IMG/VR virus record: IMGVR_UViG_3300044695_006401
From: a virus
Taxonomy: Duplodnaviria; Caudoviricetes
Direction: 5' to 3' (one strand)
Length of the DNA stretch: 64,000 nt
The position numbers and the translations under genes were made by a program. Under the pieces are notes generated by a model, which was given only the letters and a program-made list of their open reading frames with translations, ran no database searches and was not told where the DNA came from. Below, piece by piece: positions 32,956-51,514 of this stretch; the first letter of the stretch is position 1; every line of letters starts with the position of its first letter.

Positions 32956-32960
32956 TAAAT

Positions 32961-32987: not shown

Positions 32988-33013
32988 GATTTATAATACC
33001 TACTTTTTACTTA
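32986..33013 (+). promoter_or_regulatory. Possible sigma70-like promoter of the glycan operon
   Basis: TTGATT-N16-TACTTA in AT-rich context. Confidence 0.35.
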
Positions 33014-33027
33014 AAATAATTTCATTT

Positions 33028-34236
33028 ATGAGTAAAATTAAGGTATTGGTATTACCATCAGATAAGACAGGTGTTGGTAAATTTAGAAGTGTGGATCCAC
33101 ATGTATGTCTACAAAATAATCATTCAGATGAATTTCATGTTGATATTGATTACGAACCTAAAGTAAATGATCTAAATTATTGGAAACAATACGATATAGT
33201 TCATTTTCATAGAACAATAGGTCACGACTATGATAATTCTGTGAACCTCATACAAAAGTTAAATTTATTGGGTATTGTTACTATTGCCGATATTGACGAT
33301 TATTGGTTACCAACAAAAGAACATCCAGTTCACCAATTAGTTATCGAAAATAAGTTGCACCAAAAAATTATGAACAACTTAAAAGTTGCTCAACATGTGA
33401 CAACAACAACTTCTGTTTTTGCCGCAGAAATTAGCAAGTTAAATAAAAATGTTTATGTGCTACCTAACGCAATTAACCCAAAAGAACCACAATTCCAACA
33501 CGAAACAAAACCTTGTGACAAACTTAGATTTGGTTGGTTAGGTGGGTCATCTCACTTACACGATTTGAAATTACTTGACGGAACTATTAGTAAACTAAAA
33601 CCTCAACAAGATAAATTTGAAATGTATCTTTGTGGGTTTGATATCAGAGGGACAGTTACAGAAATTAACCAACAAACTAAAGAACAAAAACAAAGACCTA
33701 TTAGACCTGAAGAAACTGTTTGGGCTCGGTACGAAGAAATTTTTACAAACAACTATCAGTTTGTTGACCCTACCCACAAAGACTTCCTAATGAAATTTGA
33801 AGATAAACCATATGATGAAGAATCTTTTTATCATAGAGTATGGACTAAACCTGTCACTAGTTATGCTTCTAATTACAGATTATTCGATGTATCGTTAGCA
33901 CCAATTAAAAATCACATTTTTAACAGAGTTAAATCACAATTAAAGGTAATTGAGGCGGGTTTTTACAAAAAGGCAATTATCGCATCTAACATTGGTCCTT
34001 ATAGTATTGATTTAAAACATGCATTGAAGAATGGTGAATTTACAGATGGTAATGCGTTATTGGTTGATGAAGTTAGAAATCATAGTGATTGGCAAAAATA
34101 TATGAAGAAACTAATAGATAACCCTAATTGGGCTTATGATTTAGGTCAAAAATTATATGAGACCGTAAAGGACACATACGATCTTAATAAAGTGACAAGA
34201 GACAGAGCTGAACTATATAAAACACTTGTAAAATGA
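33028..34236 (+). CDS. GT-B (GT4-like) glycosyltransferase
   Basis: DIDDYW, FGWLGGSSH, KSQLKVIEAG...IASNIGPY; likely start 33028. Confidence 0.8.
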   Translation: MSKIKVLVLPSDKTGVGKFRSVDPHVCLQNNHSDEFHVDIDYEPKVNDLNYWKQYDIVHFHRTIGHDYDNSVNLIQKLNLLGIVTIADIDDYWLPTKEHPVHQLVIENKLHQKIMNNLKVAQHVTTTTSVFAAEISKLNKNVYVLPNAINPKEPQFQHETKPCDKLRFGWLGGSSHLHDLKLLDGTISKLKPQQDKFEMYLCGFDIRGTVTEINQQTKEQKQRPIRPEETVWARYEEIFTNNYQFVDPTHKDFLMKFEDKPYDEESFYHRVWTKPVTSYASNYRLFDVSLAPIKNHIFNRVKSQLKVIEAGFYKKAIIASNIGPYSIDLKHALKNGEFTDGNALLVDEVRNHSDWQKYMKKLIDNPNWAYDLGQKLYETVKDTYDLNKVTRDRAELYKTLVK

Positions 34237-34958
34237 TAAATGTACCTTTAACCAAAATTTTATTTTTAGATATTGAAACTGTTGGTGGTTGCCCTGATTA
34301 CCAATCATGTATAAAAACCAATCCTACTGTCGCACATCAGTTTGACAAATACTTTGATTGGTTTTTAAAAAGATTTCCCGAAGACAAAGAATTCGGAGAG
34401 GGTAGGACCACAGAGGAACACATGGATATAGTATTTAAAAAACGAGCGGCTCTTGTTCCTGAGTTCGCAAAAATAGTTTGTGTTTCTATGGCATTTGTTT
34501 TAGACAATGGTGAAGTAAAAAAACAAACTTTTTCAGGTGATGATGAACAGAAACTTTTATCTGAGGTTAGAAACTTGTTAAATAGAACCCACAAATTAGA
34601 TTTCTATCTTTGTGGTCATAACCTAAAGAACTTTGATATCCCAATGTTGGCAAAAAGAATGATCATAAATGGTTTGGAGCCATCTAAAATTCTTCCTTCA
34701 TACGACACTAAACCGTGGGAAGTCAAAGCAATTGATACTAAAGAAGTATGGCAATATGGTGCTTACACAGCAATTGGATCACTAGATTTAATGTGCGCGT
34801 GTTTAGATATCCCAACACCTAAAGATGGACCTGTGAATGGTGGGATGGTTCACGAGGCATATTGGAGCAATAACATGTTAAATGAAATATCAGAATATTG
34901 TGAAAAGGATGTTGATGTTTTAATTGAAGCAATAATGAAATTAAAATCTTTAAAATAA
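34233..34958 (+). CDS. Stand-alone PolB-like 3'-5' exonuclease (DEDDy)
   Basis: LFLDIETV, GHNLKNFDIP, YCEKDV. Confidence 0.85.
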   Translation: MINVPLTKILFLDIETVGGCPDYQSCIKTNPTVAHQFDKYFDWFLKRFPEDKEFGEGRTTEEHMDIVFKKRAALVPEFAKIVCVSMAFVLDNGEVKKQTFSGDDEQKLLSEVRNLLNRTHKLDFYLCGHNLKNFDIPMLAKRMIINGLEPSKILPSYDTKPWEVKAIDTKEVWQYGAYTAIGSLDLMCACLDIPTPKDGPVNGGMVHEAYWSNNMLNEISEYCEKDVDVLIEAIMKLKSLK

Positions 34959-34959
34959 A

Positions 34960-35562
34960 ATGTTTGATAATATTAAAAATTTAAGAGAGAGTGTTAAGAT
35001 AATGAAAGAGTTGCAAGGAAAATTCAATGGAATTGATATGAGCAGCCCTGAACAAATGTTATCATCAATGGGTGTTAGTGAAGACGATTTAAATTCGTAT
35101 TTTGAAGATTCCTTAACAAAAAAAGTTAATTTAAAATATACTAACAGTACCGACAACAAAGATCCTGAATATGCTTATGAATCTGATTCGGGATTTGATT
35201 TAAGAGCTTCTCAAGAAATTGAGATACAACCATTAGGTAGAAATCTAATACCGACGGGAATAAGATTTGACATCCCTGATGGTTACGAAATACAAGTAAG
35301 GTCTAAAAGTGGTTTAGCCCTTAATCAAGGATTAATGGTTTTAAACTCACCAGGAACTGTAGACAGTGGTTACCAAGGAGAAGTTAAGGTTATTATTTTT
35401 AACACAACAAACGAAGTGGTAAAAATAGAAAAAGGTCAAAAAGTCGCACAAGCAGTTTTCTGTCCGGTAGTAAATGGTAAGTGGGTTAATTTAACGAAAA
35501 TTTCTGAGATTGGAAAAAAAGACAGAAATGATAATGGGTTTGGGTCAACAGGTTTAAAATGA
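34960..35562 (+). CDS. dut: dUTPase
   Basis: DSGFDLRA, RSKSGLA, GTVDSGYQGE, KVAQAV, RNDNGFGSTG. Confidence 0.95.
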   Translation: MFDNIKNLRESVKIMKELQGKFNGIDMSSPEQMLSSMGVSEDDLNSYFEDSLTKKVNLKYTNSTDNKDPEYAYESDSGFDLRASQEIEIQPLGRNLIPTGIRFDIPDGYEIQVRSKSGLALNQGLMVLNSPGTVDSGYQGEVKVIIFNTTNEVVKIEKGQKVAQAVFCPVVNGKWVNLTKISEIGKKDRNDNGFGSTGLK

Positions 35563-36650
35563 TTACTATAGGATTTTCAACGAGAAAGATTAATGATGGT
35601 TTTATTGAACTATTAAAAAAATCATGTGGAGTACCAAATCCGCAGATTATACCAATTGAAAATGAAGGTAAGTATTCACTACCTGAAGCATATAATATGA
35701 TATTGGAACAATCGACAAATGATATCGTCGTATTGTGTCATGATGACATTTATTTTGATAGTAAAAATTGGGGTACAAAAATTATTAAACATTTTAAAAG
35801 AAATACTGACTATGGTATTTTAGGTCTTGCCGGGTCAACTCAACTACCCTCATCTGCTAAATGGTGGGAAGACTTTTCTAAAATGAAAGGTATTGTTAAT
35901 CACGAACACGGAGGAAAAAAATGGGAGTCAAAATACTCAGAGAGTTTAGGGAATCAAATTGAAAATGTGGTTTTGGTGGACGGACTTTTAATCGCATTAA
36001 ATAAAAAAAATATCAAAGAAAAATTTAACGAGAACATAAAAGGGTTTCACTTTTATGATGTTGATTTTTCATTTAGAAATTTCATTAGAGGTGTTAAAAT
36101 TGGAGTTATGTATGATGTAAGAGTAACTCACAAATCAATCGGAGCAACAAATGACCAATGGGAACAAAACAGAATTATTTTTGCAGAAAATAATAAAGAA
36201 AATCTTCCGTTGAAAGTTAAAATGGATTTAGATAAAAATTCAAGGTTAAAGGTTCTAATTTATACTAAAAACTATGAGTCGTCAAAACCCCTACTTGATA
36301 TTTTAAACCAAACAAAATATAATGTTAGTTTCTGTGGTATCTTGGACCAAAAAACAATTAATCATTTCAAAGGGAAATCAATTAATTTATACCCAATAAC
36401 CGAACCAAATGGTTTTAAAATCGGTGACGGTAAATGGGGGTCAAACACACCTAATGGTTTTGTTCTTGCTGAACCTAATAAGTTATATAAAATAAAAGAA
36501 ATATACTATGACATTATACATGTTTTTGACGATGTGTCTAAAAAAGAAGCCACTAACTTGTACCCGTTATGTAATGTTATGTACAGAGAGTCAAAATTTG
36601 AAAATGTTGGAGATTTAATAAATTGTTACAATAAAATAATAAATGGTTAA
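35559..36650 (+). CDS. GT2-like glycosyltransferase
   Basis: AYNMIL...VLCHDDI, VDGLLI, FHFYDVDFS. Confidence 0.75.
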   Translation: MITIGFSTRKINDGFIELLKKSCGVPNPQIIPIENEGKYSLPEAYNMILEQSTNDIVVLCHDDIYFDSKNWGTKIIKHFKRNTDYGILGLAGSTQLPSSAKWWEDFSKMKGIVNHEHGGKKWESKYSESLGNQIENVVLVDGLLIALNKKNIKEKFNENIKGFHFYDVDFSFRNFIRGVKIGVMYDVRVTHKSIGATNDQWEQNRIIFAENNKENLPLKVKMDLDKNSRLKVLIYTKNYESSKPLLDILNQTKYNVSFCGILDQKTINHFKGKSINLYPITEPNGFKIGDGKWGSNTPNGFVLAEPNKLYKIKEIYYDIIHVFDDVSKKEATNLYPLCNVMYRESKFENVGDLINCYNKIING

Positions 36651-37434
36651 AATAATTTCAGGATGGAGTGACCGAGGTGGATCAACTTTCGCATTTATCA
36701 ACTTAACTAATAAACTTAATGAAAGCGGTATAGATACAACCTTTTATGGTCCACACCCTTGGCATTTAGATAAATGCAAATCAGGACTTTTAGATGAAAA
36801 ATTTAGATTATACGAAAATGATATTGTAATAACTCATTTTTTAAATTTAGGTGATAGACCAAATGTAAAAAAGATTATTTTATCATGTCACGAAAAAAAT
36901 TTATTTGAGGTTGGTAAAATTAAAAAGTATTGGGATACGGTTGTATTTGTAAATAATAAACAGAGAGAATATCATAATCAGTACAATGGTCCTTTTGAAA
37001 TAATACCAAACATAAAAGAAGTTTTGGAAAAAAAAGAAAAGGATGAATCTGTAAAAAATGTTGCGGGTATTGTGGGATCTATAGATGAGAACAAACAAAC
37101 CCATGTCTCAATCGAGAGAGCAATTGAAGATGGTATGGAGAAAATATATTTGTTTGGAAATATTAGTGACCAAAATTATTATGAAAAAAAAGTAAAACCT
37201 CTTATCGATAATGATAAGGTTGTTGAATATGGTTTTGTTTCGGATAAACAAAAAATTTACGACATGATCAATTATGCTTACCTTTCTTCAAAAAGTGAAG
37301 TTGCATCACTTGTTAAAGATGAATGCGAATCCACTGGAACAATTTTTAAAGGAAACTTCGCAACAAACAACGATTCAGAGTCAATTACTAATTCTGAAAT
37401 CATAGAAAAATGGATAAAATTATTAATGAACTAA
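36643..37434 (+). CDS. GT-B glycosyltransferase-like protein
   Basis: RGGSTFAFINL, IVGSIDENKQ, YLSSKSE. Confidence 0.65.
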   Translation: MVKIISGWSDRGGSTFAFINLTNKLNESGIDTTFYGPHPWHLDKCKSGLLDEKFRLYENDIVITHFLNLGDRPNVKKIILSCHEKNLFEVGKIKKYWDTVVFVNNKQREYHNQYNGPFEIIPNIKEVLEKKEKDESVKNVAGIVGSIDENKQTHVSIERAIEDGMEKIYLFGNISDQNYYEKKVKPLIDNDKVVEYGFVSDKQKIYDMINYAYLSSKSEVASLVKDECESTGTIFKGNFATNNDSESITNSEIIEKWIKLLMN

Positions 37435-37438
37435 ACTT

Positions 37439-38152
37439 ATGGTAATTGTAACTACTTTATTTAATGCTGAAAATTATATTGAAAGGTGTATTGGTTCGAT
37501 TATGGGTCAAACACATACAGATTTTAAATGTTATATAACAGATGACATCTCTACAGACAACAGTGTCTCTAAAGTTGAAAACATGATTAAAGGTGACGAT
37601 AGATTCCTTTTAATTAAAAATGAAAAAAAGATGTATCAGCCAGGAAACTACGACCAAGTAATTAGAAACAACCCAAACATTCAAGACAACGAAATAATTG
37701 TAGAAGTAGACGGAGATGATTGGTTACCTGATTCAAAAGCCTTGGAAAGAATATATAATGTTTACTCAAACCCAAATGTGTGGATAGCTAATGGAAGTTT
37801 TAAATACTCTACAGGTCAACCCGGTTTTTCTTCAAAACAAACAAATTTTGATAATCTTAGGAATGTAAGATTTACTGCATCTCATATCAGAACTTGGAGA
37901 GCTTTCCTATGGAGAAAAATTGATCAATCTGATCTGAAAGATGAGAATGGTGAATTTTGGAAAGTTACAGGTGATTTATCTTTTATGTACCCGATGCTTG
38001 AAATGTCCGGAGAAAATAGATATAGATTCATGACTGATGTAAATTATGTATATAACGAACAAAATCCCATAAATGATCATAAAGTCGATCTTAAGTTGGT
38101 AAACGAAATTGCCGATAAAATTAGAAATATGAAACCATATAAATTGTTATGA
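37439..38152 (+). CDS. GT2 glycosyltransferase
   Basis: FNAENYIERCIGSI, ITDDISTD, EVDGDDWL. Confidence 0.85.
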   Translation: MVIVTTLFNAENYIERCIGSIMGQTHTDFKCYITDDISTDNSVSKVENMIKGDDRFLLIKNEKKMYQPGNYDQVIRNNPNIQDNEIIVEVDGDDWLPDSKALERIYNVYSNPNVWIANGSFKYSTGQPGFSSKQTNFDNLRNVRFTASHIRTWRAFLWRKIDQSDLKDENGEFWKVTGDLSFMYPMLEMSGENRYRFMTDVNYVYNEQNPINDHKVDLKLVNEIADKIRNMKPYKLL

Positions 38153-38844
38153 GTCCTTTATTTTCAATTTGTATACCCACATGGGAGCAAAATGGTTTTG
38201 GGGGGGTTTATTTGTCTAAATTGCTCGACACAATTAAAACTCAAACACTCCAAGACTTTGAAGTTGTGATTTCGGACCACAGTACAACTAACCTAATACA
38301 GGATGTGGTTAAAAAGTACTCTTCTGATATTAATATAGTTTATGTCACTAACCAAGAAAAAATTGGTAATAGCCCATCCAACACCAACAACTCAATCAAA
38401 CATTCAAAAGGGAAAATTATTAAGGTGATGTTCCAAGACGATTTTTTATTTAACAATAAATCATTAGAAATGATCTCTTCTAAATTCGAAGATAATGTAA
38501 TGTGGGTTGTCAATGGGTGTAATCACACAGATTCTAATAACAGTAAGTATTGGAATTACATGGTCCCAAGTTGGAATGACTCAATATATAGAGGGATAAA
38601 CACAATAAGTTCCCCGTCCGTTTTGTCTTTTAGAAAAGATTCTAACATTCTTTTTGATGATAATCTAGTGATGCTCATGGATTGTGAGATTTATTATAAT
38701 TTTTACACTAAATACGGATTACCCGCAATAATACCCGAAACTCTTATTACGAATAGATTACATGAAAATCAAATTAGTTCCAACTATAGGTTAGACATTA
38801 ATGATGAGATAAACTATGTCATAAAAAAATATAATATCATATAA
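38149..38844 (+). CDS. GT2 glycosyltransferase
   Basis: FSICIPTW, VISDHST, MFQDDFL, MDCE. Confidence 0.85.
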   Translation: MSPLFSICIPTWEQNGFGGVYLSKLLDTIKTQTLQDFEVVISDHSTTNLIQDVVKKYSSDINIVYVTNQEKIGNSPSNTNNSIKHSKGKIIKVMFQDDFLFNNKSLEMISSKFEDNVMWVVNGCNHTDSNNSKYWNYMVPSWNDSIYRGINTISSPSVLSFRKDSNILFDDNLVMLMDCEIYYNFYTKYGLPAIIPETLITNRLHENQISSNYRLDINDEINYVIKKYNII

Positions 38845-39626
38845 TGAATATTATTAGTACAAATTTAATGGGGGGATTAGGTAACTGTCTATTTCAAATC
38901 GCAGCGGCATATGCAACATCTTTAAGGGATTCTAAAAAGTTTATCTGTCCAAAAGTTGTATCTCACGGATCACATAAACCAATAAACAATTATTTTAATA
39001 ATATTTTTAGCAGAATAGAATTTGGGTCAATACCCTCAGATATTCAGTTATACCATGAACCCCGTTTTCATTATAATGAAATACCTAATGCACATAACAA
39101 CATCATGTTATACGGATATTTCCAATCTGAAAAATATTTTAATGTTTATAGGAATGAGATTTTAAATTTGTTCTCAGCTACCAATGAAATTGAAAATAAG
39201 TTAACTACAAAATATTTCCACTTACTCCAAAAAAAAACTTGCTCAATTCACATAAGGAGGGGGGATTATGTGAGGTTGAGCGATTCCCACACGGTACAAC
39301 CAATTGACTATTATGAAAAAGCAACTAATATTATTGGTGAGGGTTGTGAGTATTTGATATTTTCAGATGATATAGAATGGTGTAAAGAAAATTTTAGTTT
39401 CCTTAAAAATACCCATTTCATAGAAGGGGACACTGATTTTGAAAATCTATATTTAATGTCAATGTGTTATCATAACATAATTGCAAATTCAACATTCAGT
39501 TGGTGGGGAGCGTGGTTAAATAAAAATGAAGATAAAAAAGTTATATGTCCATCCGATTGGTTTGGACCAATAAATAAACATTTACAAACCAAGGACATTT
39601 ATCCCACAAAATGGATTGTAATATAA
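38844..39626 (+). CDS. GT11 alpha-1,2-fucosyl/colitosyl-transferase-like
   Basis: GGLGNCLFQ, GYFQSEKYF, HIRRGDY, ANSTFSWWGAWL. Confidence 0.9.
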   Translation: MNIISTNLMGGLGNCLFQIAAAYATSLRDSKKFICPKVVSHGSHKPINNYFNNIFSRIEFGSIPSDIQLYHEPRFHYNEIPNAHNNIMLYGYFQSEKYFNVYRNEILNLFSATNEIENKLTTKYFHLLQKKTCSIHIRRGDYVRLSDSHTVQPIDYYEKATNIIGEGCEYLIFSDDIEWCKENFSFLKNTHFIEGDTDFENLYLMSMCYHNIIANSTFSWWGAWLNKNEDKKVICPSDWFGPINKHLQTKDIYPTKWIVI

Positions 39627-39638
39627 AAATTTTTTAAA

Positions 39639-40538
39639 ATGAAAGTATGTGTAGTAGGTGGTGCAGGATTTATTGGTCACCATATCGTAAAAAAGTTTTT
39701 AAGTTTAGGTCATCAAGTATTGGTAATTGATGACTTGAGCACGGGTAAATTAGAAAATATCCCAAATAACTGTGAATTTATAAAATCCGATGTTTCAGAA
39801 ATTGATATGGAAACTTTAGTCAATTATTTGGAAGGTGTTGATTTGGTGTACCACACTGCAGCCAAAGCAAGGGTACAACCTTCGATTGTAGACCCAATTT
39901 CTTTTAATAGGGCGAATGTAGATTCAACATTGAGAATTTTAGTTGCGTCACATAGGTCAAAAGTAAAACGAGTTATTTATTCAGCATCAAGTAGTGTCTA
40001 TGGTGATACTAACATATTCCCAACACCTGAAACTGCAAACCCCAACCCAATGAGTCCTTATGGATTACAAAAATTTATTGGAGAGCAATACTGTAAACTT
40101 TTTTCCGAAGTCTACAATTTAGATACGGTATCTCTTAGATATTTCAATGTTTATGGTGAAGGTATGTTAGATGAAGGGGCTTATTGTACTGTGATTGGTA
40201 TCTTTGCTAATCAATATAAACAATCTAAACATTTAACAATAACCAACGATGGTGAGCAAAAAAGAGACTTTACATATGTTGGGGATGTTGTCGAAGCAAA
40301 TTATTTAGCCGGAGTATATGAAGAATCTTTCAACGGTGATGTATTTAATGTCGGTAACGGTGACAATTATAGTATTAACGAAATTGCAGATTTATTTGAA
40401 TCAGAAAAAGTTTACAATGAACAAAGGTTAGAACCTTATATCACTTTGGCAGACAACAGTAAAATTAAAAACAAGTTGGGGTGGATTCCTAAAGGTAATG
40501 TAATATCTTGGGTGAAAAAATATAAAAAAACTTTATGA
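39639..40538 (+). CDS. NAD-dependent nucleotide-sugar epimerase/dehydratase
   Basis: GGAGFIG, SASSSVYG, YGLQK, LRYFNVYG. Confidence 0.9.
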   Translation: MKVCVVGGAGFIGHHIVKKFLSLGHQVLVIDDLSTGKLENIPNNCEFIKSDVSEIDMETLVNYLEGVDLVYHTAAKARVQPSIVDPISFNRANVDSTLRILVASHRSKVKRVIYSASSSVYGDTNIFPTPETANPNPMSPYGLQKFIGEQYCKLFSEVYNLDTVSLRYFNVYGEGMLDEGAYCTVIGIFANQYKQSKHLTITNDGEQKRDFTYVGDVVEANYLAGVYEESFNGDVFNVGNGDNYSINEIADLFESEKVYNEQRLEPYITLADNSKIKNKLGWIPKGNVISWVKKYKKTL

Positions 40539-41206: not shown

Positions 41207-41208
41207 AT

Positions 41209-43178: not shown

Positions 43179-43187
43179 TTTTTTATA

Positions 43188-44018: not shown

Positions 44019-44040
44019 CTCTAAGTCAAATAGATAATAC

Positions 44041-44069
44041 TTGTGTTTATTTTATGGGGTTTATATGTT
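44041..44069 (+). promoter_or_regulatory. Possible internal sigma70-like promoter before the colitose cassette
   Basis: TTGTGT-N17-TATGTT in the only sizeable gap (81 bp) of the island. Confidence 0.35.
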
Positions 44070-44099
44070 ATTTTGAAATAAAAAAATATACAGTAAAAT

Positions 44100-44864: not shown

Positions 44865-44883
44865 ACTTAATAAAAAACAAAAA

Positions 44884-45810
44884 ATGGGTAGGATATTAAT
44901 TACAGGGTCTAATGGGTTAGTTGGTTCGGCATTAAGAAAACAACTAGGTGACGATCATGTGTACCATACAAAAGAAGAGGTGGATCTTTTAGACTATAAA
45001 AAAACTCATGATTATTTTTCTTATCATGTAAAACATAGTAATGTGGATACAATAATTCATTGTGCCGCAAAAGTCGGAGGTGTTCAAGCAAACCTATCCG
45101 ATAATAAAGGATTTTTTATAGATAATTTCGTAATAAACAATAATGTGATGGAGACTTCATTTAGAAATGAAGTTCCCAACTTTGTGAATTTACTTTCGAC
45201 TTGTATATTTCCTGAGAAAAACATAGAGTTTCCAATGAAACCTCAGGATGTTGACAAGGGTAAACCTCATCCATCAAACGAAGGTTATGCTTACGCTAAA
45301 AGATTAGCAGGATACGAAACAAACACTATTAAAAAGGTTCTTAAATCTAATTGGGTTTCAGTTGTACCTACGAATGTATACGGAATACACGATAACTTCA
45401 ACTTATTTGGTGGACATATGATTCCAGCTATGATCCATAGAGCGTATGAATCAAAAAAAAATAAAGAAAAAATGATAATATGGGGCGATGGTTCACAATT
45501 AAGACAAGTAATTCATTCTGATGATTTAGCAAAATTAATTTTATGGTCATTAGATAATTGGAAAAGTGACTATCCCTTTATGGCGGTAAATCCGAATGAG
45601 CACTCAGTTTTGGAAATATCTAATTTAATTTGTGAAAACTTCAATATTTCGAAAGATGATATACTGTTTGATAACACAAAACCGACGGGTCAATTGAGGA
45701 AACCTGCAATTTCGGACGCACCTTCGAATTTTGAATTTACGACATTATCGGATGGAATTAAAACAACAATAGATTGGTTTATTCAAAACTACGATAAATT
45801 AAGAAAATAA
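44884..45810 (+). CDS. colC: GDP-4-keto-6-deoxyhexose epimerase/reductase (Fcl/ColC family)
   Basis: GSNGLVG, HCAAKVGG, LSTCIFP, YAYAK, PTNVYG; likely start 44884. Confidence 0.8.
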   Translation: MGRILITGSNGLVGSALRKQLGDDHVYHTKEEVDLLDYKKTHDYFSYHVKHSNVDTIIHCAAKVGGVQANLSDNKGFFIDNFVINNNVMETSFRNEVPNFVNLLSTCIFPEKNIEFPMKPQDVDKGKPHPSNEGYAYAKRLAGYETNTIKKVLKSNWVSVVPTNVYGIHDNFNLFGGHMIPAMIHRAYESKKNKEKMIIWGDGSQLRQVIHSDDLAKLILWSLDNWKSDYPFMAVNPNEHSVLEISNLICENFNISKDDILFDNTKPTGQLRKPAISDAPSNFEFTTLSDGIKTTIDWFIQNYDKLRK

Positions 45811-45816
45811 GACATT

Positions 45817-46971
45817 ATGAGTATAAAATTAGTAAGTGACACTATCAATAAAGAAGATATAAATTCTTTAATTGAGTGGTTAGGACAAGACGAGATTCCG
45901 AGACTAACAAAAGGAGATCTAACTTGGGAATTAGAATCTAAATGGGCGAAAAAAATAGGAACCAAATATTCGGTTTATCTTAATTCAGGTTCCTCCGCAA
46001 TTCTTTTAGCGTTAGCGGCTTTACAACACACCAACAAATTAAAAAATAATAAAGTAATTGTACCAGGGTTAAGTTGGGCAACCGATGTTAGTTCACCTAT
46101 GATATTAGGTATGGAACCAATTTTATGTGATTGTAATCTTGAGGATCTTTCTTGTGATTTAGATCACTTGGAAAAATTGTTTATTCAACATAACCCATCT
46201 ACATTCATTTTAGTCTCACCATTAGGTTTAGTTCCTGATATGAAAAAAGTTCTTGACCTATGTGAGAAATACAATGTGATCCTACTGGAGGATGTATGCG
46301 AGAGCATGGGATCAAAGTATAATGAAAAATACCTCGGGTCTTTTGGCTTTGCATCATTTTTTTCGATGTATTTTGGACATCATTTAAGTACAATAGAGGG
46401 TGGGTTTATTAATACGGACGACGAAGATTTTTATTATTCATTATTGATGATGAGAAGTCATGGTTGGGATAGAGACCTACCAAAAAGAATCCAAAATAAA
46501 TTACGAAACGAAAATAAAATTAGCGAATTTGATTCACTATATACATTTTATTTACCAGGATTTAATCTAAGATCAACGGATCTACAAGCGTTTATTGGGT
46601 TAAGAGCAATAGATAAATTAGATGACTATACTGAAAAAAGGAACAAAAATTTTCAATTGTATAAATCTTCAATAAATGTCAACCAACTGAATATAACAGA
46701 TAGACCAACAGACTTTATTTCTAATTTTGCATATCCCATTGTAAATAAAAATAGATTAAAAATCATCGAAAAACTTATTAAGGATAATATTGAAGTTAGG
46801 CCTTTAATTGCTGGTGATATGTCAAAAAAACCTATGTGGATTAAAAATTATGGTGAGGTTAATTTACCTAATTGTCAATTGATCAATGAGTATGGGTTTT
46901 ATATACCAAACCATCAGGATCTAACATCAGAACAAATAAATTTAATTTCAAACATAGTAAATAATGAGTAA
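45817..46971 (+). CDS. colD: GDP-4-keto-6-deoxy-D-mannose 3-dehydratase (ColD-like PLP enzyme)
   Basis: NSGSSA, EDVCESMG, SMYFGHHLSTIEGG (His at the Schiff-base Lys position), RSHGWDRDLP. Confidence 0.8.
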   Translation: MSIKLVSDTINKEDINSLIEWLGQDEIPRLTKGDLTWELESKWAKKIGTKYSVYLNSGSSAILLALAALQHTNKLKNNKVIVPGLSWATDVSSPMILGMEPILCDCNLEDLSCDLDHLEKLFIQHNPSTFILVSPLGLVPDMKKVLDLCEKYNVILLEDVCESMGSKYNEKYLGSFGFASFFSMYFGHHLSTIEGGFINTDDEDFYYSLLMMRSHGWDRDLPKRIQNKLRNENKISEFDSLYTFYLPGFNLRSTDLQAFIGLRAIDKLDDYTEKRNKNFQLYKSSINVNQLNITDRPTDFISNFAYPIVNKNRLKIIEKLIKDNIEVRPLIAGDMSKKPMWIKNYGEVNLPNCQLINEYGFYIPNHQDLTSEQINLISNIVNNE

Positions 46972-47944
46972 AAAGATTGCATTAATAACAGGTATAAATG
47001 GTCAGGACGGATCTTACTTATCTGAGTTATTATTAGAAAAAGGATATGAAGTGCATGGCACATTAAAAAGAAACTCTGTTTCTGAAAATCAAACTTCTCG
47101 TTTGGATAATGTATTTGACAAATTAATATTGCATTACGCAGACTTAACGGATTTATCATCACTAATAAGAGTTATTAGTGAAATTAAACCCGATGAGGTT
47201 TATAATTTAGCAGCACAATCGCATGTTAGAATTTCTTTCGATCAACCGATATACACTGCAAATGTTACGGGGTTAGGTACTCTGAATATTTTAGAAGCGG
47301 TTAAACTTGTAAATCCTGAAATTAAAATTTATCAAGCATCTTCATCCGAGATGTTCGGTAATTCAATAGATAAGGATGGACTTCAAAGAGAAACAACACC
47401 GATGAATCCAGTTTCACCTTATGGTTGTGCCAAAGTATTCTCATATAATATTTGTAGAAATTATAGAAACGCATATAACATGAAAATATGGAATGGTATT
47501 TTATTTAACCATGAGTCACCAAGAAGAGGTACAAATTTTGTAACAAATAAAGTGGTTAAGGCGGCAGTTAGAATCAGTTTAGGTCTACAAGAAAAATTAC
47601 ACATAGGTAATTTAGAAGCATCCAGAGATTGGGGTCATGCTAAAGATTATGTTGAAGCTATGTGGTTAATGTTACAATCGGACAACCCTAATGATTATGT
47701 GTGTGCGACAGGAGTTTCACACACGGTAAAAGATTTATGTGAGTATACCTTTAGTACTTTAGGTTTAGAATATAAAGATTATGTTGTTATTGACGAGAAA
47801 CACTTTAGGCCCGAAGAACTTGAAAATCTTAAGGGGGACTCTTCAAAATTAACAAATGATTTAGGTTGGAAACCAAAATACACTTTTGAATCTATGTTAG
47901 ATGAAATGATTGAGTATTGGTTAAACTACTATAAAAACAAATAA
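46964..47944 (+). CDS. gmd: GDP-mannose 4,6-dehydratase
   Basis: TGINGQDGSYL, LAAQSHV, QASSSEMFG, PYGCAK, FNHESPRR, RDWGHA. Confidence 0.95.
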   Translation: MSKKIALITGINGQDGSYLSELLLEKGYEVHGTLKRNSVSENQTSRLDNVFDKLILHYADLTDLSSLIRVISEIKPDEVYNLAAQSHVRISFDQPIYTANVTGLGTLNILEAVKLVNPEIKIYQASSSEMFGNSIDKDGLQRETTPMNPVSPYGCAKVFSYNICRNYRNAYNMKIWNGILFNHESPRRGTNFVTNKVVKAAVRISLGLQEKLHIGNLEASRDWGHAKDYVEAMWLMLQSDNPNDYVCATGVSHTVKDLCEYTFSTLGLEYKDYVVIDEKHFRPEELENLKGDSSKLTNDLGWKPKYTFESMLDEMIEYWLNYYKNK

Positions 47945-47951
47945 TAAATAA

Positions 47952-48692
47952 ATGACAAGAAAAAGAACAATCCAAACACCTGAGGAATCATTAATTCCAA
48001 AAACTATATCAAAAAAAGATTTTATTAATTCAGTCATTAAAAGAAAACAAAAAAATAAATTTTTATCAGATAACCAAAAAGAGTATTACGATATCTTAAT
48101 TAATAACCAAATCACCATATGTTCAGGACCTGCAGGTGTTGGTAAAAGCTATATTTCCATGAGGGCGGCAGTTGACTTACTTATGGACCCAAATAACTCT
48201 TATGAAAAGATAATCATTGTAAGACCCGCAGTTGAAGCTGAGGAAAAATTAGGTTCTCTACCTGGAAACTTAGAAGAAAAGTTAGACCCGTACATTTTTC
48301 CATCCTACTATCTACTTAATAAGATCATAGGAAAAGAGGCTAGAGAAAAATTAAAAGAATCTGAAATTATTGAGGTATTCGCTTTAGCATATATGAGGGG
48401 AATGAATATCGATAACTCGATTTTAATTTTTGAAGAGGCCCAAAACGCAACACCTAATCAAATGAAACTACTATTGACAAGAATCGGGTTTAATAGTAAA
48501 TTTTTTATATCGGGAGATTTAGAACAGACTGATAGGTATAAAGATAAAAAACAATCCGGATTGTACGACGCATTACAACGATTTCAAAATATTAACGATG
48601 TCGGCGTGTATGATTTCAGAAACGCTAAAAATGTGAGAAATCCACTTATTAGTAAAATATTAGAAAAATATGACGAAGAGAGTAGGAATTGA
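47952..48692 (+). CDS. phoH: PhoH-family ATPase
   Basis: GPAGVGKS, RPAVE, AYMRG, EEAQN, GDLEQ. Confidence 0.93.
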   Translation: MTRKRTIQTPEESLIPKTISKKDFINSVIKRKQKNKFLSDNQKEYYDILINNQITICSGPAGVGKSYISMRAAVDLLMDPNNSYEKIIIVRPAVEAEEKLGSLPGNLEEKLDPYIFPSYYLLNKIIGKEAREKLKESEIIEVFALAYMRGMNIDNSILIFEEAQNATPNQMKLLLTRIGFNSKFFISGDLEQTDRYKDKKQSGLYDALQRFQNINDVGVYDFRNAKNVRNPLISKILEKYDEESRN

Positions 48693-49329
48693 GGTTAACG
48701 GTGTATTAAGAGATACTTTAGGAAAGTTTACGCAACTGTATGAGAAACATTTTATAGAGGAGCAAGACTCAGAATCATTAGGTAAAACTTTTGATTTGGA
48801 CATGTCCGGTAACACTTTTGAACATAATGAAGAAAATGAATTTAAGTATGAAATATTATCAGATGTAACCAGTCTAAATTTAATGGACCATTTTAAATTT
48901 AAAAATAACGATGAACTTTATAGTTTCATGTATGAAGATTTTGTAATGCAAATATTTGGTCACGCCGGATCATCAGAAACATTTACTTTTAATGAGTTAA
49001 ATAATCTTTATCTTGACCACCGTGATTCATGTGATGTGATCATAATCTCAGATGAAATAGGGAGGTCTAAACCAGCGACATTATTTTTTTTATCAAAATT
49101 CGGGTCATTAGTTGAATCGGTAATATTCTATTCCATGTCAACCAAAAACAGATTGTGGGATAATGTCGATGTGTTACTGACATCAAATCCTGAAAATATA
49201 ACAAATGCTCCGTCAGATAAAATAGTTGTAAAATATATTACAGAATATAATAAATCAGTTAAGTGTAACTACGAGATTTCGTCTTTAGGTGAATTTGACG
49301 AATTACTAAAAAAATTAAAATTATGTTAG
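48670..49329 (+). CDS. 5'(3')-nucleotidase (NT5C)-like HAD-fold protein with a degenerate motif I
   Basis: RVGIEVNGVLRD (ExN in place of DxD). Confidence 0.5.
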   Translation: MTKRVGIEVNGVLRDTLGKFTQLYEKHFIEEQDSESLGKTFDLDMSGNTFEHNEENEFKYEILSDVTSLNLMDHFKFKNNDELYSFMYEDFVMQIFGHAGSSETFTFNELNNLYLDHRDSCDVIIISDEIGRSKPATLFFLSKFGSLVESVIFYSMSTKNRLWDNVDVLLTSNPENITNAPSDKIVVKYITEYNKSVKCNYEISSLGEFDELLKKLKLC

Positions 49330-49631
49330 ATTTTTTAGGAGAAAAATACTATATAGACATTGATGAATTAGAACATCAAGTTAGTATGACTAAATCCAAA
49401 ATACCTTTACCTAAAAAAGGTAAAAAAGAGACTGAAGAAAAATCAGAGGAACCTGAACAACAAATAAGTGTTACAAGATACGACACATTCAAATTTTTAA
49501 TTGAGGTCGTTTTGACTGAAAGAGAGGAAATGGATGAGAATTTAGGTATTCATAGTGCTAAAAATTTATCTTTACCATTTAAATTTGCATTTAATACATT
49601 ATTAATGAATAAAATAATAAAACATTTATAA
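49323..49631 (+). CDS. Hypothetical protein
   Basis: 102 aa coupled ORF. Confidence 0.6.
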   Translation: MLDFLGEKYYIDIDELEHQVSMTKSKIPLPKKGKKETEEKSEEPEQQISVTRYDTFKFLIEVVLTEREEMDENLGIHSAKNLSLPFKFAFNTLLMNKIIKHL

Positions 49632-49634
49632 AAC

Positions 49635-50699
49635 ATGGAATTAGAAAAAATACAAAAGGTTGAGGGTTCGATTGAGAACCTTAAATCAAGAAAATCGAGA
49701 ATCTACTTTATGGTGCAAGACACCAAAGGAAATCCAAAGGCATCTGTTAGATATATTTACGACATAGCACTAACTTTATTAAAAAATGGATTCAACCCTA
49801 CAATTATTCACGAAACTACAGATTATACAGGTGTATCAGAATGGTTAGATGAAGAATACATGAAAATTCCACATCTTCCGATAGACGGTCAAAACTTAGC
49901 AATTTCACCTGAAGATTTTATTGTTATACCTGAACTATACTCACATGTGATGGAACAAATAAAAAATTTCCCATGTGCTAAAATTGTTTTGTGTCAAGCA
50001 TATGACTATATGTTAGAGACATTATCGCCAGGTACGACATGGTCCCAATACGGGTTTACTAAATGTATCACAACATCAGATTTCCAAAAAAAATACATTT
50101 CAGAAATTATGAGATCAGGTAGTTTTGATGTATTAAATGTAAATATTCCTTCAGTTTTCAAGAAAAAAGAAAGACCGTCAAAACCAATTATCGCAATCCA
50201 CACCAGAGAACCAAGAGACACTGCAAAAATAATAAAAAGTTTTTACCTTAAATATCCACAATTTAGATGGATCACATTTAGAGATATGAGAGGAATAAAA
50301 CAAGATGATTTCGCAACCTTTTTACAAGAATCGTATCTTTCCATTTGGGTTGATAATGAAAGTGGGTTTGGTACATTCCCTTTAGAGTCTATGATTTCAG
50401 GAACCCCTGTAATTGGAAAAATCCCTAATTTAAAACCTACATGGATGACTGAAGAAAACGGGTTATGGGTTAATAATTACAATGAGATTATTGATGTTGT
50501 TGCAAACTTTACTCAAAATTGGTTAGAGGATAATATATCAGAAACTCTTCATGTTAATATGTCATTAACAGGAGAAGAATACCAAGACCAAGATAAATTC
50601 GAATCATCTGTTGTTGAATTATTTGATGGGTATTTAAAAACCAGATCTCAAATCTTTGAAGAACAATTAGAAAAAATAAAAGTATCAGAAAATAATTAA
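49635..50699 (+). CDS. GT-B glycosyltransferase-like protein
   Basis: VIPELY, ESGFGTFPLESMISGTPVIG. Confidence 0.7.
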   Translation: MELEKIQKVEGSIENLKSRKSRIYFMVQDTKGNPKASVRYIYDIALTLLKNGFNPTIIHETTDYTGVSEWLDEEYMKIPHLPIDGQNLAISPEDFIVIPELYSHVMEQIKNFPCAKIVLCQAYDYMLETLSPGTTWSQYGFTKCITTSDFQKKYISEIMRSGSFDVLNVNIPSVFKKKERPSKPIIAIHTREPRDTAKIIKSFYLKYPQFRWITFRDMRGIKQDDFATFLQESYLSIWVDNESGFGTFPLESMISGTPVIGKIPNLKPTWMTEENGLWVNNYNEIIDVVANFTQNWLEDNISETLHVNMSLTGEEYQDQDKFESSVVELFDGYLKTRSQIFEEQLEKIKVSENN

Positions 50700-50701
50700 T
50701 T

Positions 50702-51514
50702 ATGGAAAAAAATAAATTTGATGTTTCGGTAATCTTACCAGTAAATACATCTATGACAAAAGATTTTGAAGACTTATTCAGTAAGTCAGTTAAATCAGTA
50801 GAAAACCAAATTATTGGTATAACTGAATTAATCGTAGTACACTCAACCGAAGAAAAATTAAAGTCGTTTTTACAATCATATGATTTTAATGGTATTAATG
50901 TAAAATTAGTAGAGAACAATGGTTCATTTGATTTTGCATCTCAGGTAAATTTAGGAGTTAATGAATCGAACGGTGAATGGGTTTCTATTTTAGAGTTTGA
51001 TGATGAGTATTCCTCAATATGGTTTAAAAGTGTAGATAGATATGTAAAATCATATGGTAATGAGGTTGATGCGTATCTTCCGTTGGTTATTGATATTGAC
51101 GATAAAGGGGTGTTCGCAGGGTTTACTAATGAAGCAACTTTCGCAGTAAGCATGAATTCGGAAATGGGAATCCTTAGTAACGACTTATTAATGACATACC
51201 AAAACTTCCAATCAAGTGGTATGGTTATAAGAAAAAATACTTTTAATGAAAATGGTGGTTTCAAACCTTCAATTAAGTTAACTTTTGTATATGAGTTCCT
51301 TTTAAGATTGACATACAACTCAGCTAAAATAATGACAATTCCAAGAATTGGTTACAAACATATGAACATGAGAGAAGGGTCTATTTTTTGGAATTACAAA
51401 TATGGTCAACCTAGTCTGACTGAGAACGAAATTAAATTTTGGTTAGAGTCGGCAAAGAAAGAACATTTTTTCACTTCTGATAGAGAAATAAAATATGTAT
51501 CAGAAACGGTTTAA
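50702..51514 (+). CDS. GT2 glycosyltransferase
   Basis: VSVILPV, VNLGV, ILEFDDEY, YEFLLRL. Confidence 0.8.
   Translation: MEKNKFDVSVILPVNTSMTKDFEDLFSKSVKSVENQIIGITELIVVHSTEEKLKSFLQSYDFNGINVKLVENNGSFDFASQVNLGVNESNGEWVSILEFDDEYSSIWFKSVDRYVKSYGNEVDAYLPLVIDIDDKGVFAGFTNEATFAVSMNSEMGILSNDLLMTYQNFQSSGMVIRKNTFNENGGFKPSIKLTFVYEFLLRLTYNSAKIMTIPRIGYKHMNMREGSIFWNYKYGQPSLTENEIKFWLESAKKEHFFTSDREIKYVSETV

Follow-up and report, generated by a model that had tools for sequence, protein, structure and literature searches.

Organization of the glycosyltransferase run

The window analysed here is a stretch of 64,000 nucleotides from a 57%-complete genome fragment of a giant, uncultured lake-water phage. The phage appears to be a freshwater jumbo phage, distantly related to T4, whose lineage is known from sequence alone, without an isolate. 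Its capsid is closest to those of RM378, Flavobacterium immuto phages, and Mel-JY01, and it probably infects a bacterium of the Bacteroidota. The run at 33028-51514 (~18 kb) is a single plus-strand series of genes that overlap or are spaced by less than 13 nt, with a sole wider gap of 81 nt at 44019-44099. It encodes 12 glycosyltransferase-like proteins, namely five GT2, one GT11, one TOD1/DUF616, two weaker fucosyltransferase-like, and three GT-B proteins, together with Gmd, ColD, an Fcl/ColC-like enzyme, a GalE/TviC-like epimerase, and an AsnB-like amidotransferase. The preliminary description had named the same genes, and Pfam for most of the transferases, fold comparison for the three GT-B proteins, and Pfam/NCBIfam for the remainder bear it out. 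The features are:

32961-32983, + strand: intrinsic-terminator-like hairpin with a T run, just 5' of the first glycosyltransferase
33028-34236, + strand: GTB1, core GT4-type GT-B transferase, virus-specific (AF2 pLDDT 91; Foldseek GT4 matches)
34233-34958, + strand: PolB-type 3'-5' exonuclease, conserved, non-glycan (Pfam PF10108, 3.4e-12; synteny)
34960-35562, + strand: dUTPase, conserved, non-glycan (Pfam PF00692, 8.8e-26; synteny)
35559-36650, + strand: GT2a, core GT-A transferase, Glyco_tranf_2_5 (Pfam PF13712, 2.4e-28)
36643-37434, + strand: compact GT4-like GT-B transferase, variable (Atlas model, TM 0.83-0.86 to GT4 families)
37439-38152, + strand: GT2b, semi-variable (Pfam PF00535, 1.1e-16; 13/29 loci)
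38149-38844, + strand: GT2c, semi-variable (Pfam PF00535, 3e-10; 17/29 loci)
38844-39626, + strand: GT11, core α-1,2-fucosyltransferase-family enzyme (Pfam, 2.2e-30)
start 39639, + strand: GalE/TviC-like epimerase, strain-specific insert (NCBIfam)
start 40535, + strand: TOD1_MUCI70/DUF616 protein, strain-specific insert (Pfam, 8.8e-18)
start 41209, + strand: AsnB-like amidotransferase, strain-specific insert (NCBIfam)
start 42534, + strand: GT2d, strain-specific insert (Pfam GT2, 5.6e-9)
start 43188, + strand: NodZ-like protein, strain-specific insert (below threshold, 4.8e-4)
start 44100, + strand: GT11-like protein, strain-specific insert (Pfam GT11 marginal, 24.0 bits versus cut-off 23.9)
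44854-45810, + strand: Fcl/ColC-like enzyme (Pfam/NCBIfam comparison; 23/29 loci)
45817-46971, + strand: ColD 3-dehydratase (best match E. coli ColD, 193 bits; 22/29 loci)
46964-47944, + strand: Gmd (above NCBIfam cut-off; 27/29 loci)
47952-48692, + strand: PhoH, conserved, non-glycan (Pfam, 1.6e-63; synteny)
48670-49329, + strand: NT5C-like HAD nucleotidase, conserved, non-glycan (Atlas NT5C; synteny)
49323-49631, + strand: unknown 102-residue protein, conserved, non-glycan (synteny)
49635-50699, + strand: GTB2, core GT4 transferase of the Actinobacillus Agt/AmGGT family (AF2 pLDDT 90.6; fold and profile)
50702-51514, + strand: GT2e, core GT-A transferase, right end of the run (Pfam GT2, 7.6e-7)
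51514-52257, + strand: sigma-like protein (weak Sigma70_r2, E 0.006; synteny in ~27 loci)

The hairpin sets the run apart from the upstream u250-WYL-u207 genes. The sigma-like gene adjoins the 3' end of the run and belongs to the conserved block, outside the glycan machinery. The earlier characterization of the run as a glycan assembly line needs a qualification: the series is broken by the exonuclease, dUTPase, PhoH, NT5C-like, and 102-residue protein genes. Likewise, the run lies among virion genes at the scale of the 64-kb window, with sheath, tube, and baseplate genes at 12.6-18.3 kb and capsid genes at 59.1-61.0 kb, but the genes directly next to it serve replication and nucleotide metabolism or are sigma-like, and the structural module is located elsewhere.

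Conserved frame and variable slot

The ends of the run are common to the whole phage lineage, while its middle varies between individual phages. Of 80 related viral contigs, about 45 keep the block in synteny, and this comparison separates a frame of core transferases from a hypervariable slot. The lineage-wide transferases are GTB1, GT2a, GT11, GTB2, and GT2e. GTB1 retains 50-85% identity across 30 related loci, GT2e retains 52-64% in most syntenic loci, and GT2a, present in 28/29 loci, marks the left edge of the slot. In metagenomes, GTB1 forms at least 8000 clusters at 90% identity, on contigs of up to 301 kb; in cellular genome bins it occurs on only seven MAG contigs, which have inconsistent taxonomy and are mis-binned. 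Relatives of GT11 are found on more than 587 viral contigs. The nearest Atlas clusters of the compact GT-B protein and GT2a are 91-100% viral (100% for GT2a). Judged by these distributions, the core transferases are a property of the phage lineage and not recent loans from hosts.

Counted over 29 loci, 82 families occupy the slot. Singletons make up 33 of these, and the families represented include GT10, GT25, O-methyltransferases, aminotransferases, and an acetyltransferase. The family of the compact GT-B protein is present in one of the 29 loci. The insert at 39639-44864, in the order epimerase, TOD1/DUF616, AsnB-like, GT2d, NodZ-like, and GT11-like, is shared only with loci L026 and L039 and partly with L062. 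When contig depth is summed in four lake metagenomes, the flanks exceed the slot several-fold. An acceptor carried along by the phage would fit this combination of a constant core and changing decoration. The run belongs with the already known phage "LPS/glycan islands".

Glycosyltransferases and sugar-nucleotide enzymes

The three GT-B proteins have no Pfam match, and the fold of each was confirmed by structure comparison. The true start of GTB1 is the ATG at 33028, since its homologs have stops upstream. Foldseek matches of GTB1 include GlgM, MshA, PglA, and BshA. The chlorovirus GT4 structure 3oy2 also appears among its fold matches. The closest solved relative of GTB2 and its best Foldseek match is AmGGT (8xsg, TM 0.70/0.73); the relationship to Agt/AmGGT is detected by profile (E 3.6e-23) and single sequence (E 7e-11), at an identity of ~20%. 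Agt and AmGGT are soluble, processive glucosyltransferases that lengthen glycopeptide or oligosaccharide acceptors, and AmGGT accepts free oligosaccharides but not glycopeptides (PMC12159676).

The core GT11 enzyme is likely a fucosyl- or colitosyltransferase and shares an HIRRG motif with the GT11-like protein at 44100. The NodZ-like protein has GGLGN and H-x-R-x-x-D motifs. Of the 12 transferases, ten have an acidic pI (4.9-6.65), the exceptions being GT2a (8.8) and GTB1 (7.7), whereas four E. coli lipid-carrier transferases, a small control from another phylum, are basic (8.3-9.3).

Gmd is predicted to convert host GDP-mannose to GDP-4-keto-6-deoxymannose, from which ColD and the ColC/Fcl-like reductase would produce GDP-L-colitose and possibly GDP-L-fucose (cassette 44854-47944). 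A His-His pair of the ColD homolog aligns with the His-His stretch of E. coli ColD, which presumably holds the histidine that stands in for the catalytic lysine. No manB or manC was seen in the run. The epimerase and amidotransferase together indicate a second sugar, probably of the uronamide type.

Membrane and export machinery

No ORF of the run has a transmembrane segment, as had been described, or a signal-peptide-like N-terminus; the same method flags E. coli Wzx and Wzy. Genes for Wzx, a Wzy/WaaL-type ligase, WecA, WbaP/PglC, or an ABC transporter were not found in the record. Because the record is 57% complete, it cannot by itself support their absence from the genome, and the comparison was extended to five relatives, of which one is 100% complete; these genes were not found there either. 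The preliminary description had concluded from these absences that the acceptor is cytoplasmic. That step is weak: four E. coli O-antigen and colanic-acid glycosyltransferases that act on undecaprenyl-linked acceptors also lack transmembrane segments, so their absence is uninformative about the acceptor, and a host initiating transferase, flippase, or MsbA could serve in place of phage export genes.

Other glycan cassettes and candidate acceptors

Elsewhere in the genome, a cassette with a GT60 polypeptide-GlcNAc-transferase (PF11397, 2.7e-68) lies between (Thr-Pro)n fibre proteins that lack a signal peptide; its flanking proteins are Thr/Pro-rich, collagen-like, and of the SprB-repeat type. 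Another cassette encodes GT9, a GT1-GT9-methyltransferase fusion, a prolyl-hydroxylase-like 2OG-Fe(II) oxygenase, and a UGM-like flavoprotein. The whole 57% fragment contains at least 18 transferase-like genes. (Thr-Pro)n linkers occur in seven proteins of the genome, and a signal peptide in none of the seven. The following protein is a candidate glycan acceptor by its sequence features:

28095-30392, - strand: conserved 765-residue protein without a signal peptide, (Thr-Pro)n linker at residues 615-669

Its gene lies 2.6 kb upstream of the run, divergent from the intervening u250 gene group, and is a conserved neighbour in relatives. The run itself contains no known protein-initiating transferase. 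Of five relatives that retain the run, three lack GT60, the complete one among them, and GT60 is thus not a general initiator. The GT60 homolog of phage XacN1 is ORF334 (46% identity), and at least two virion glycoproteins of XacN1 have been reported (PMC5852040).

Proposed virion glycosylation and alternative readings

We propose, with a probability of about 45%, that the run assembles glycans in the cytoplasm, independently of a lipid carrier, and modifies the phage's own virion proteins with them. The five core transferases would assemble a conserved core oligosaccharide sugar by sugar, and those of the slot would add decorations particular to each phage, with 6-deoxy- or 3,6-dideoxy-hexose caps among them. 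The acceptor would be a phage-made virion protein in the cytoplasm, with the signal-less (Thr-Pro)n-linker fibre proteins as candidates, on which GT60 could place the first sugar. The particle would then carry a variable glycan coat, a "phage serotype", shielding or tuning its surface.

From sequence, a virion protein is most likely the acceptor, with host-surface remodelling as the alternative; the acceptor named in the preliminary description thus stands, on evidence other than the argument first given for it. The virion reading is favoured because the parts of the run are all soluble and phosphoglycosyltransferase and export genes were not found in the record or in five relatives, because the core transferases are virus-specific and lineage-conserved around a hypervariable slot in a syntenic block, because GTB2 is homologous to soluble enzymes extending protein-linked or free glycans, and because most of the transferases are acidic. 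The GT60 and GT9/oxygenase cassettes, the signal-less (Thr-Pro)n proteins, and the glycoproteins of XacN1, which carries a GT60 homolog, point the same way. Against it stand the location of the run in a replication and nucleotide-metabolism region, interleaved with exonuclease, dUTPase, PhoH, and nucleotidase genes, the lack of a protein-initiating transferase in the run, and the patchy presence of GT60. Moreover, transferases working peripherally on the host's undecaprenyl-linked glycans or lipid A-core would look identical in sequence.

Such enzymes could instead modify undecaprenyl-PP glycans or lipid A-core at the inner membrane face, and host Wzx, ABC transporter, or MsbA with Lpt would export the altered glycan, changing the surface of the infected cell, with superinfection exclusion, fewer progeny lost on debris, or grazer evasion as possible effects. 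We regard this remodelling of the host envelope as rather unlikely. Homologous "LPS/cell-wall" clusters in T4-like cyanophages are currently interpreted in this way (PMC12801897), and cyanophage GT11 enzymes are 34-37% identical to that of the run. It is compatible with the missing transmembrane segments and export genes, given the E. coli transferases, and gmd, colD, GT2, GT4, GT11, GT25, and AsnB-like genes are the content of O-antigen loci; GT2a and GTB1 are also not acidic. However, a virus-specific core kept down to 50% GTB1 identity is hard to fit to acceptors that vary between host strains, the other ten transferases are acidic, an initiating transferase or ligase is absent even from the complete relative, and the genome clearly invests in protein-directed glycosylation.

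Glycosylation of modified phage bases as protection against restriction is improbable. Some or all of the transferases would be involved, above all GTB1, beside the exonuclease and dUTPase, and GTB2 and GT2e, beside PhoH and the nucleotidase; nucleotide-metabolism genes surround and interleave the run, and the T4 DNA glucosyltransferases are GT-B enzymes. Distant GTB1 homologs are present in phi92-like coliphages, in which glycosylated DNA is not known, and this counts against a DNA acceptor. Phage transferases do load mono- to trisaccharides onto 5hmC, but the same study reports no GDP-sugar or fucose (bioRxiv 10.1101/2023.12.21.572611), and no DNA glycan described so far comes close to 12 transferases with a 3,6-dideoxyhexose pathway. 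Thymidylate-synthase-family genes occur in two relatives; a thymidylate-synthase/hydroxymethylase homolog was not found in the record, G001, or G002. Identical assemblies of the phage DNA from lake-water metagenomes, at least 20 runs of unrecorded library type, argue weakly in the same direction. We give equally little weight to a soluble non-virion product, such as a free or carrier-bound oligosaccharide or glycosylated host cytoplasmic proteins or small molecules, that might act as a decoy against lectins or glycan-binding defence, or serve host takeover. The preference of AmGGT for free oligosaccharides (PMC12159676) and the small-molecule transferases MshA, BshA, and GlgM among the fold neighbours of GTB1 would fit it, but it lacks precedent, and the hypervariable slot implies selection through outside recognition, which a cytoplasmic product would not face.

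Comparison with known systems

The T4-like cyanomyoviruses P-SSM2, S-SCSM1, and S-SCSM2R carry "LPS"/cell-wall synthesis and modification clusters (PMC12801897). Like the run, these belong to aquatic T4-like phages and comprise large soluble GT2, GT4, GT11, GT10, and GT25 arrays with gmd and epimerases near phoH, without an exporter. S-SCSM2R has 13 transferases, called "the highest number" (PMC12801897), versus the at least 18 of this phage. The run differs in phage lineage and Bacteroidota-like host, in the five virus-specific core transferases framing a swappable slot, in the ColD colitose branch, and in the separate protein-directed GT60 and GT9 cassettes of the same genome.

Chlorovirus PBCV-1, whose capsid glycosylation is cited in PMC5852040, encodes its own GDP-mannose dehydratase, fucose synthesis, and soluble virus-specific transferases, and glycosylates its capsid protein Vp54 in the cytoplasm, sequentially, without a lipid carrier or exporter, building a conserved core with strain-specific, partly methylated decorations. 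The run resembles it in virus-encoded GDP-sugar genes and several soluble virus-specific transferases, but PBCV-1 is a eukaryotic virus in which acceptor and glycans are proven, whereas for the run both are proposed. Cytoplasmic hydroxyproline glycosylation of Skp1 in Dictyostelium and Toxoplasma employs P4H1, Gnt1 (GT60), PgtA (GT2 and α-1,2-fucosyltransferase), and AgtA. The phage genome has a corresponding soluble set of prolyl-hydroxylase-like 2OG-Fe(II) oxygenase, GT60, GT2, α-1,2-fucosyltransferase-family enzyme, and GDP-fucose-type pathway, but in three loci, with GT11 instead of GT74 and (Thr-Pro)n fibre linkers as candidate acceptors. Colitose O-antigen clusters of the E. coli O55/O111 type share gmd-colD-colC, GT11-type, GT2/GT4, conserved flanks, and a variable middle with the run, which, in contrast to Wzx/Wzy pathways, lacks an initiating phosphoglycosyltransferase, flippase, polymerase, ligase, and chain-length regulator. 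Mycobacteriophages are known for only a few transferases, next to structural genes, and are not known to encode a sugar-nucleotide pathway, whereas the run has 12 and its own GDP-sugar pathway away from the structural module. Cytoplasmic N-glycosylation by Actinobacillus NGT/Agt is linked to the run through GTB2, by sequence and fold (PMC12159676).

As summarized in PMC12619734, mycobacteriophages encode transferases that attach glycans to their capsid and tail-tube proteins within the cytoplasm, with the glycans serving as a shield (Freeman et al. 2023). The same paper describes "moraphages", aquatic Bacteroidota jumbo phages of 200-307 kb from freshwater with Flavobacteriia-like hosts, a capsid near that of a Rhodothermus phage, and four core orthologous groups of glycosyltransferases, and gives neither a cluster architecture nor an acceptor proposal (PMC12619734). 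By description, the phage studied here resembles them as a freshwater jumbo phage with a Bacteroidota-type host and core glycosyltransferases.

Enzymes of the glycan gene run

The glycan gene run at window positions 33028-51514 is borne out by Pfam, NCBIfam and fold evidence, and combines clustered glycosyltransferases with dedicated sugar-nucleotide genes, as O-antigen and capsule loci do. Nine transferase-like genes match Pfam families at or near threshold: five GT2, one GT11, one TOD1/DUF616 and two weaker ones. The gene starting at 44100 encodes a further, marginal GT11 and that at 43188 a NodZ-like protein below threshold; both proteins contain the fucosyltransferase GGLGN and H-x-R-R/x-x-D motifs. 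Since PDB sequence searches with these two proteins gave no match, their assignment as putative fucosyltransferases comes only from weak Pfam scores and the motifs. The three GT-B proteins have no Pfam match, yet are confirmed by fold, two by AlphaFold models (pLDDT 91 and 90.6) and Foldseek, and that at 36643-37434 by its Atlas model.

The Gmd protein scores 424.7 bits against the NCBIfam equivalog TIGR01472 (cut-off 415) and is a GDP-mannose 4,6-dehydratase. The DegT-family protein is a ColD-type PLP 3-dehydratase, in which His replaces the catalytic Lys. Its best PDB match is E. coli ColD (2gms, 193 bits), ahead of E1 (111) and perosamine synthase (96), and its His-His aligns to the His-His stretch of E. 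coli ColD. Gmd and ColD are both enzymes of the GDP-L-colitose pathway, in which ColC acts as the epimerase/reductase of GDP-4-keto-3,6-dideoxymannose. The gene at 44854, which adjoins colD, encodes an Fcl/ColC-like protein that scores 191 bits against the Fcl family, under the 500-bit equivalog cut-off.

The run is interrupted by genes for an exonuclease, dUTPase, PhoH, an NT5C-like nucleotidase and one small gene of no assigned family. The preliminary description had located it among virion genes; its direct neighbors are replication-type and sigma-like genes instead. PHROGs and Pfam searches of the downstream genes at 52281-58352 and the large ORFs at 2-12438 gave almost no matches, and virion genes beside the run were therefore not confirmed.

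Relationships of the core transferases

The first GT-B transferase of the run, GTB1, forms at least 8000 clusters at 90% identity, on contigs of up to 301 kb. A survey of 185,579 species genomes recovered it from only seven MAG contigs. Their taxonomy is inconsistent, and they evidently represent mis-binned phage. The nearest Atlas clusters of the GT2 transferase GT2a and of the protein at 36643 are 91-100% viral. The genome survey of GTB1 and these viral clusters led us to reject a recent host origin of the core transferases.

The only significant solved relative of GTB2, the GT-B transferase near the end of the run, is the soluble GT4 glucosyltransferase AmGGT (profile E 3.6e-23 over 295 positions; Foldseek TM 0.70/0.73, rmsd 3.8). 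The homology to Agt/AmGGT enzymes extends over the whole enzyme in both sequence and fold. The single-sequence alignment begins at AmGGT residue 110, and the residue pairs that define the acceptor of AmGGT (glycopeptide or oligosaccharide) are 15-16 and 78-79. AmGGT is homologous to the Actinobacillus Agt enzymes, cytoplasmic extenders of protein-linked glucose (PMC12159676). The isoelectric points of ten of the twelve run transferases are 4.9-6.65, and those of four E. coli lipid-carrier transferases, a small control, are 8.3-9.3; acidic pI is a weak indicator of the acceptor.

Conserved frame and variable slot

Relatives of the GT11 protein are encoded by over 587 viral contigs. Of 80 loci fetched, about 45 share the gene order of the run. 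On the left are an opposite-strand 765-aa protein, five small genes, GTB1, exonuclease, dUTPase and GT2a. The middle is formed by a variable stretch that always contains GT11, followed by ColC-like, ColD and Gmd genes. On the right are PhoH, the nucleotidase-like gene, the small gene, GTB2, the GT2 transferase GT2e and the sigma-like gene. The content of the slot between the dUTPase and PhoH genes differs among loci: across 29 of them it contains 364 ORFs of 82 families, of which six are near-universal and 33 are singletons. GT10 is present in the slots of 24 of these 29 loci and absent from that of this phage. Slots of relatives also encode GT25, FkbM and CmcI-type O-methyltransferases, a hexapeptide acyltransferase, further DegT enzymes and a GT7C-like enzyme. 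The insert of this phage at window positions 39639-44864 recurs in two or three other loci only.

The same architecture is visible in four lake metagenome runs (X11, X13, X19 and X20), in which contigs with at least 85% likeness to window positions 32500-52300 were compared. Their summed depth is 5-15 times higher on core genes (GTB1, exonuclease, Gmd, PhoH and the sigma-like gene) than at 36.5-46.4 kb, so many related phages that share the frame and not the slot co-occur in these lakes. Contigs of this genotype itself differ from the slot at few or no positions.

A close relative on a 270-kb JGI contig (L082), with a GTB1 82% identical to that of this phage, has a different slot, composed of a 488-aa GT2a, an FkbM methyltransferase, a GT25-like protein, GT11, GT10 and GT2. 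It also has an LCIB_C_CA (carbonic-anhydrase-like) gene near its polymerase. Upstream of the run, window positions 30444-32955 (+) encode a DUF3721 protein, three proteins without an assigned family and a WYL-domain protein. About 30 relatives have this five-gene group in synteny, and a strong terminator (32961-32983) marks its end.

Membrane segments and export genes

A hydropathy scan, in which E. coli Wzx and Wzy were flagged as controls, detected neither a transmembrane segment nor a signal-peptide-like N-terminus in any ORF of the run; its enzymes are soluble. Export and initiation genes were searched for in the record of this phage and in those of five relatives (G001-G005, 64-100% complete), and only noise was found. 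Neither of the initiating phosphoglycosyltransferase families, WecA (PF00953) and WbaP/PglC (PF02397), has a match in the six records, one of them 100% complete; the same searches were positive in 10-13 of 14 control genomes. The flippase Wzx (PF01943) and the polymerase/ligase Wzy_C (PF04932) are likewise without a match, apart from a single 12-bit noise hit, and the Wzt ATPase search (ABC_tran) gave just P-loop-level hits of less than 20 bits per stretch. No multi-transmembrane candidate for a Wzm permease is present in the record of this phage. Since the relatives also lack export genes, the absence is real for the lineage and not an artifact of a fragmentary record.

The only multi-transmembrane ORF of the whole record, at genome positions 144390-145640 (L001:4390-5640), matches no polysaccharide family and was rejected as a Wzy or flippase. 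The 416-aa protein, which matches no family at all, has four N-terminal hydrophobic segments followed by a Pro-rich or coiled region and may function in lysis or membrane remodeling.

Further glycan cassettes and Thr-Pro proteins

Two more groups of modification genes are present in the record outside the run (genome coordinates):

125472-129656 (L086:5773-9957), outside the window: five-gene GT60 cassette encoding GT60, DUF3431, two unassigned proteins and HtrL/YibB
1209-9863 (L085): second modification cassette encoding DUF6445, two GT2, a UGM-like flavoprotein, a 2OG-Fe(II) oxygenase, a transferase fusion and GT9

The first protein of the GT60 cassette belongs to the GT60 polypeptide GlcNAc-transferase family (PF11397, 2.7e-68, 231.5 bits against a cut-off of 21). 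This family is otherwise mostly eukaryotic, and was found in none of 14 control prokaryote genomes. The cassette is flanked by Thr/Pro-rich proteins, with collagen-like and SprB-repeat proteins nearby. The two closest relatives also encode a PF11397 protein; three others that keep the run, G002, G004 and the complete G005, lack one. GT60 was therefore rejected as a general initiator for the run. Within the run itself, no protein-directed initiating transferase was recognized; the GT60 gene is 33 kb away among fiber genes. ORF334 of the Xanthomonas jumbo phage XacN1 is a GT60 homolog with 46% identity, and at least two glycoproteins have been reported from the virion of that phage (PMC5852040).

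In the second cassette, the oxygenase is of prolyl-hydroxylase type, the 978-aa fusion joins GT1, GT9 and an FkbM methyltransferase, the GT9 protein is separate, and a LamG protein adjoins. Seven proteins of the record contain (Thr-Pro)n linkers of 20-90 residues, and none of the seven has a signal peptide. One of them is the 765-aa protein at window positions 28095-30392 (-), 2.6 kb upstream of the run, past the five small genes, and its place is conserved in relatives; another is encoded at genome positions 124291-125427. With the run and the two cassettes, the record encodes at least 18 transferase-like proteins, whereas the 13 transferases of a marine phage were called a possible record (PMC12801897).

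Acceptor of the glycan

We hypothesize that enzymes of the run glycosylate phage-made virion proteins sequentially in the cytoplasm, building a conserved core that receives phage-specific decorations with colitose or fucose caps, and give this reading a probability of roughly 0.45. The missing transmembrane segments and export genes had been taken in the preliminary description to imply a cytoplasmic acceptor. The absence holds, but the inference is not compelling as stated, because four glycosyltransferases from the E. coli O84/colanic-acid region, which act on undecaprenyl-linked acceptors, also lack transmembrane segments, and a phage could borrow initiation and export from its host. Remodeling of the host envelope through host carriers and exporters is a serious rival, if a less likely one. 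Glycosylation of DNA by the run transferases is hinted at solely by the nucleotide-metabolism neighbors; the number and kind of the enzymes and the lack of a conserved hydroxymethylase make it highly improbable. The thymidylate-synthase family (PF00303), to which a hydroxymethylase supplying the modified base could belong, has members in G003 and G004 but none in G001, G002 or the record of this phage (57% complete). We give equally little credence to a soluble product that is not part of the virion, which would be unprecedented.

Within the virion-protein reading, we speculate that the run, the GT60 locus and the GT9/oxygenase locus are linked, and that this abundant freshwater jumbo-phage lineage carries a mucin-like particle glycocalyx made wholly in the bacterial cytoplasm by a eukaryote-like logic, a proposal less likely than not. 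The prolyl-hydroxylase-like oxygenase and GT60 would initiate on the (Thr-Pro)n fiber linkers, GT2 and GT4 enzymes would extend stepwise, and fucose or colitose would cap the chains. Exchange of cassettes at the dut-to-phoH slot could then generate phage serotypes under diversifying selection, a viral-side mirror of bacterial O-antigen diversity.

Islands of similar kind are present in cyanomyoviruses (PMC12801897), and transferases are listed among the core genes of moraphages (PMC12619734). The novel features of this phage are its frame-and-slot architecture, now quantified, the virus-specific core transferases, an Agt-family member in the run, and GT60 and prolyl-hydroxylase-like cassettes in the same genome, beside Thr-Pro fiber proteins. 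To our knowledge, glycan islands of large aquatic phages have been annotated as 'LPS genes' for twenty years and their acceptor was never tested. The system is sharply defined: five virus-specific transferases are fixed, the slot for decorations is swappable, the deoxy-sugar supply is its own, and the same genome encodes, beside Thr-Pro fiber proteins, a transferase family that is unmistakably protein-directed. Glycans on the virion would give the particles strain-specific sugar coats, and these would matter for adsorption, aggregation and grazing, for immune or lectin recognition, and for how much carbon viral particles contain. If the host surface is modified instead, the phage would be a tractable model for a long-standing cyanophage hypothesis. 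Under either reading, the enzymes are a predicted source of soluble, carrier-independent fucosyl- and colitosyltransferases.

Promoters

Sigma-70-like sites are not enriched in the sequence (101 found, 112 expected). The 10-mer CTATAAATAC, similar to the core of the T4 late promoter, is over-represented (4 found, 0.19 expected by chance), and is not positioned ahead of recognized structural genes:

18379, +, CTATAAATAC
20398, +, CTATAAATAC
30422, -, CTATAAATAC
56383, -, CTATAAATAC

These window sites are mostly intergenic. The motif TATAAATA precedes only six genes of the record and was rejected as a late-promoter marker, as no recognized structural gene is among them. The promoter analysis gave no timing for the run.

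Lineage, host and occurrence

The window corresponds to positions 28456-92455, read on the reverse strand, of one linear 166,385-bp IMG/VR virus record. CheckV estimates the record as 57% complete, which implies a full genome of probably about 290 kb. Landmark genes of the window are:

12.6-18.3 kb: sheath, tube and baseplate genes
24811-27675: family-B polymerase
59145-60971, -: major capsid protein, Gp23 family, 608 aa (Pfam, tblastn)

The best tblastn matches of the capsid protein are an uncultured huge phage, Microcystis phage Mel-JY01, Flavobacterium immuto phages and Rhodothermus phage RM378. When the 19-kb run was compared by megablast with 50,697 phage records, no match was returned, so none of the sequenced isolates is closely related. 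The lineage resembles the moraphages (PMC12619734). SprB-repeat fiber proteins, a Flavobacteriaceae-binned relative and the low GC content (32.5% in the window) point to a Bacteroidota host. As the abundance of GTB1 clusters also indicates, the lineage is very common in lakes: near letter-for-letter copies of the stretch occur in at least 20 lake-water metagenome runs. None of the RNA runs in the metagenome run search contains it.

The Gp23 domain match of the capsid protein covers mainly residues 347-593, and its tblastn relatives align in two pieces with about 55% coverage, which suggests a putative large lineage-specific insertion or N-terminal region. The protein encoded at window positions 22214-23314 (+) contains an Fe/Mn superoxide dismutase domain (residues 166-355) preceded by an unexplained N-terminal extension of about 160 residues.
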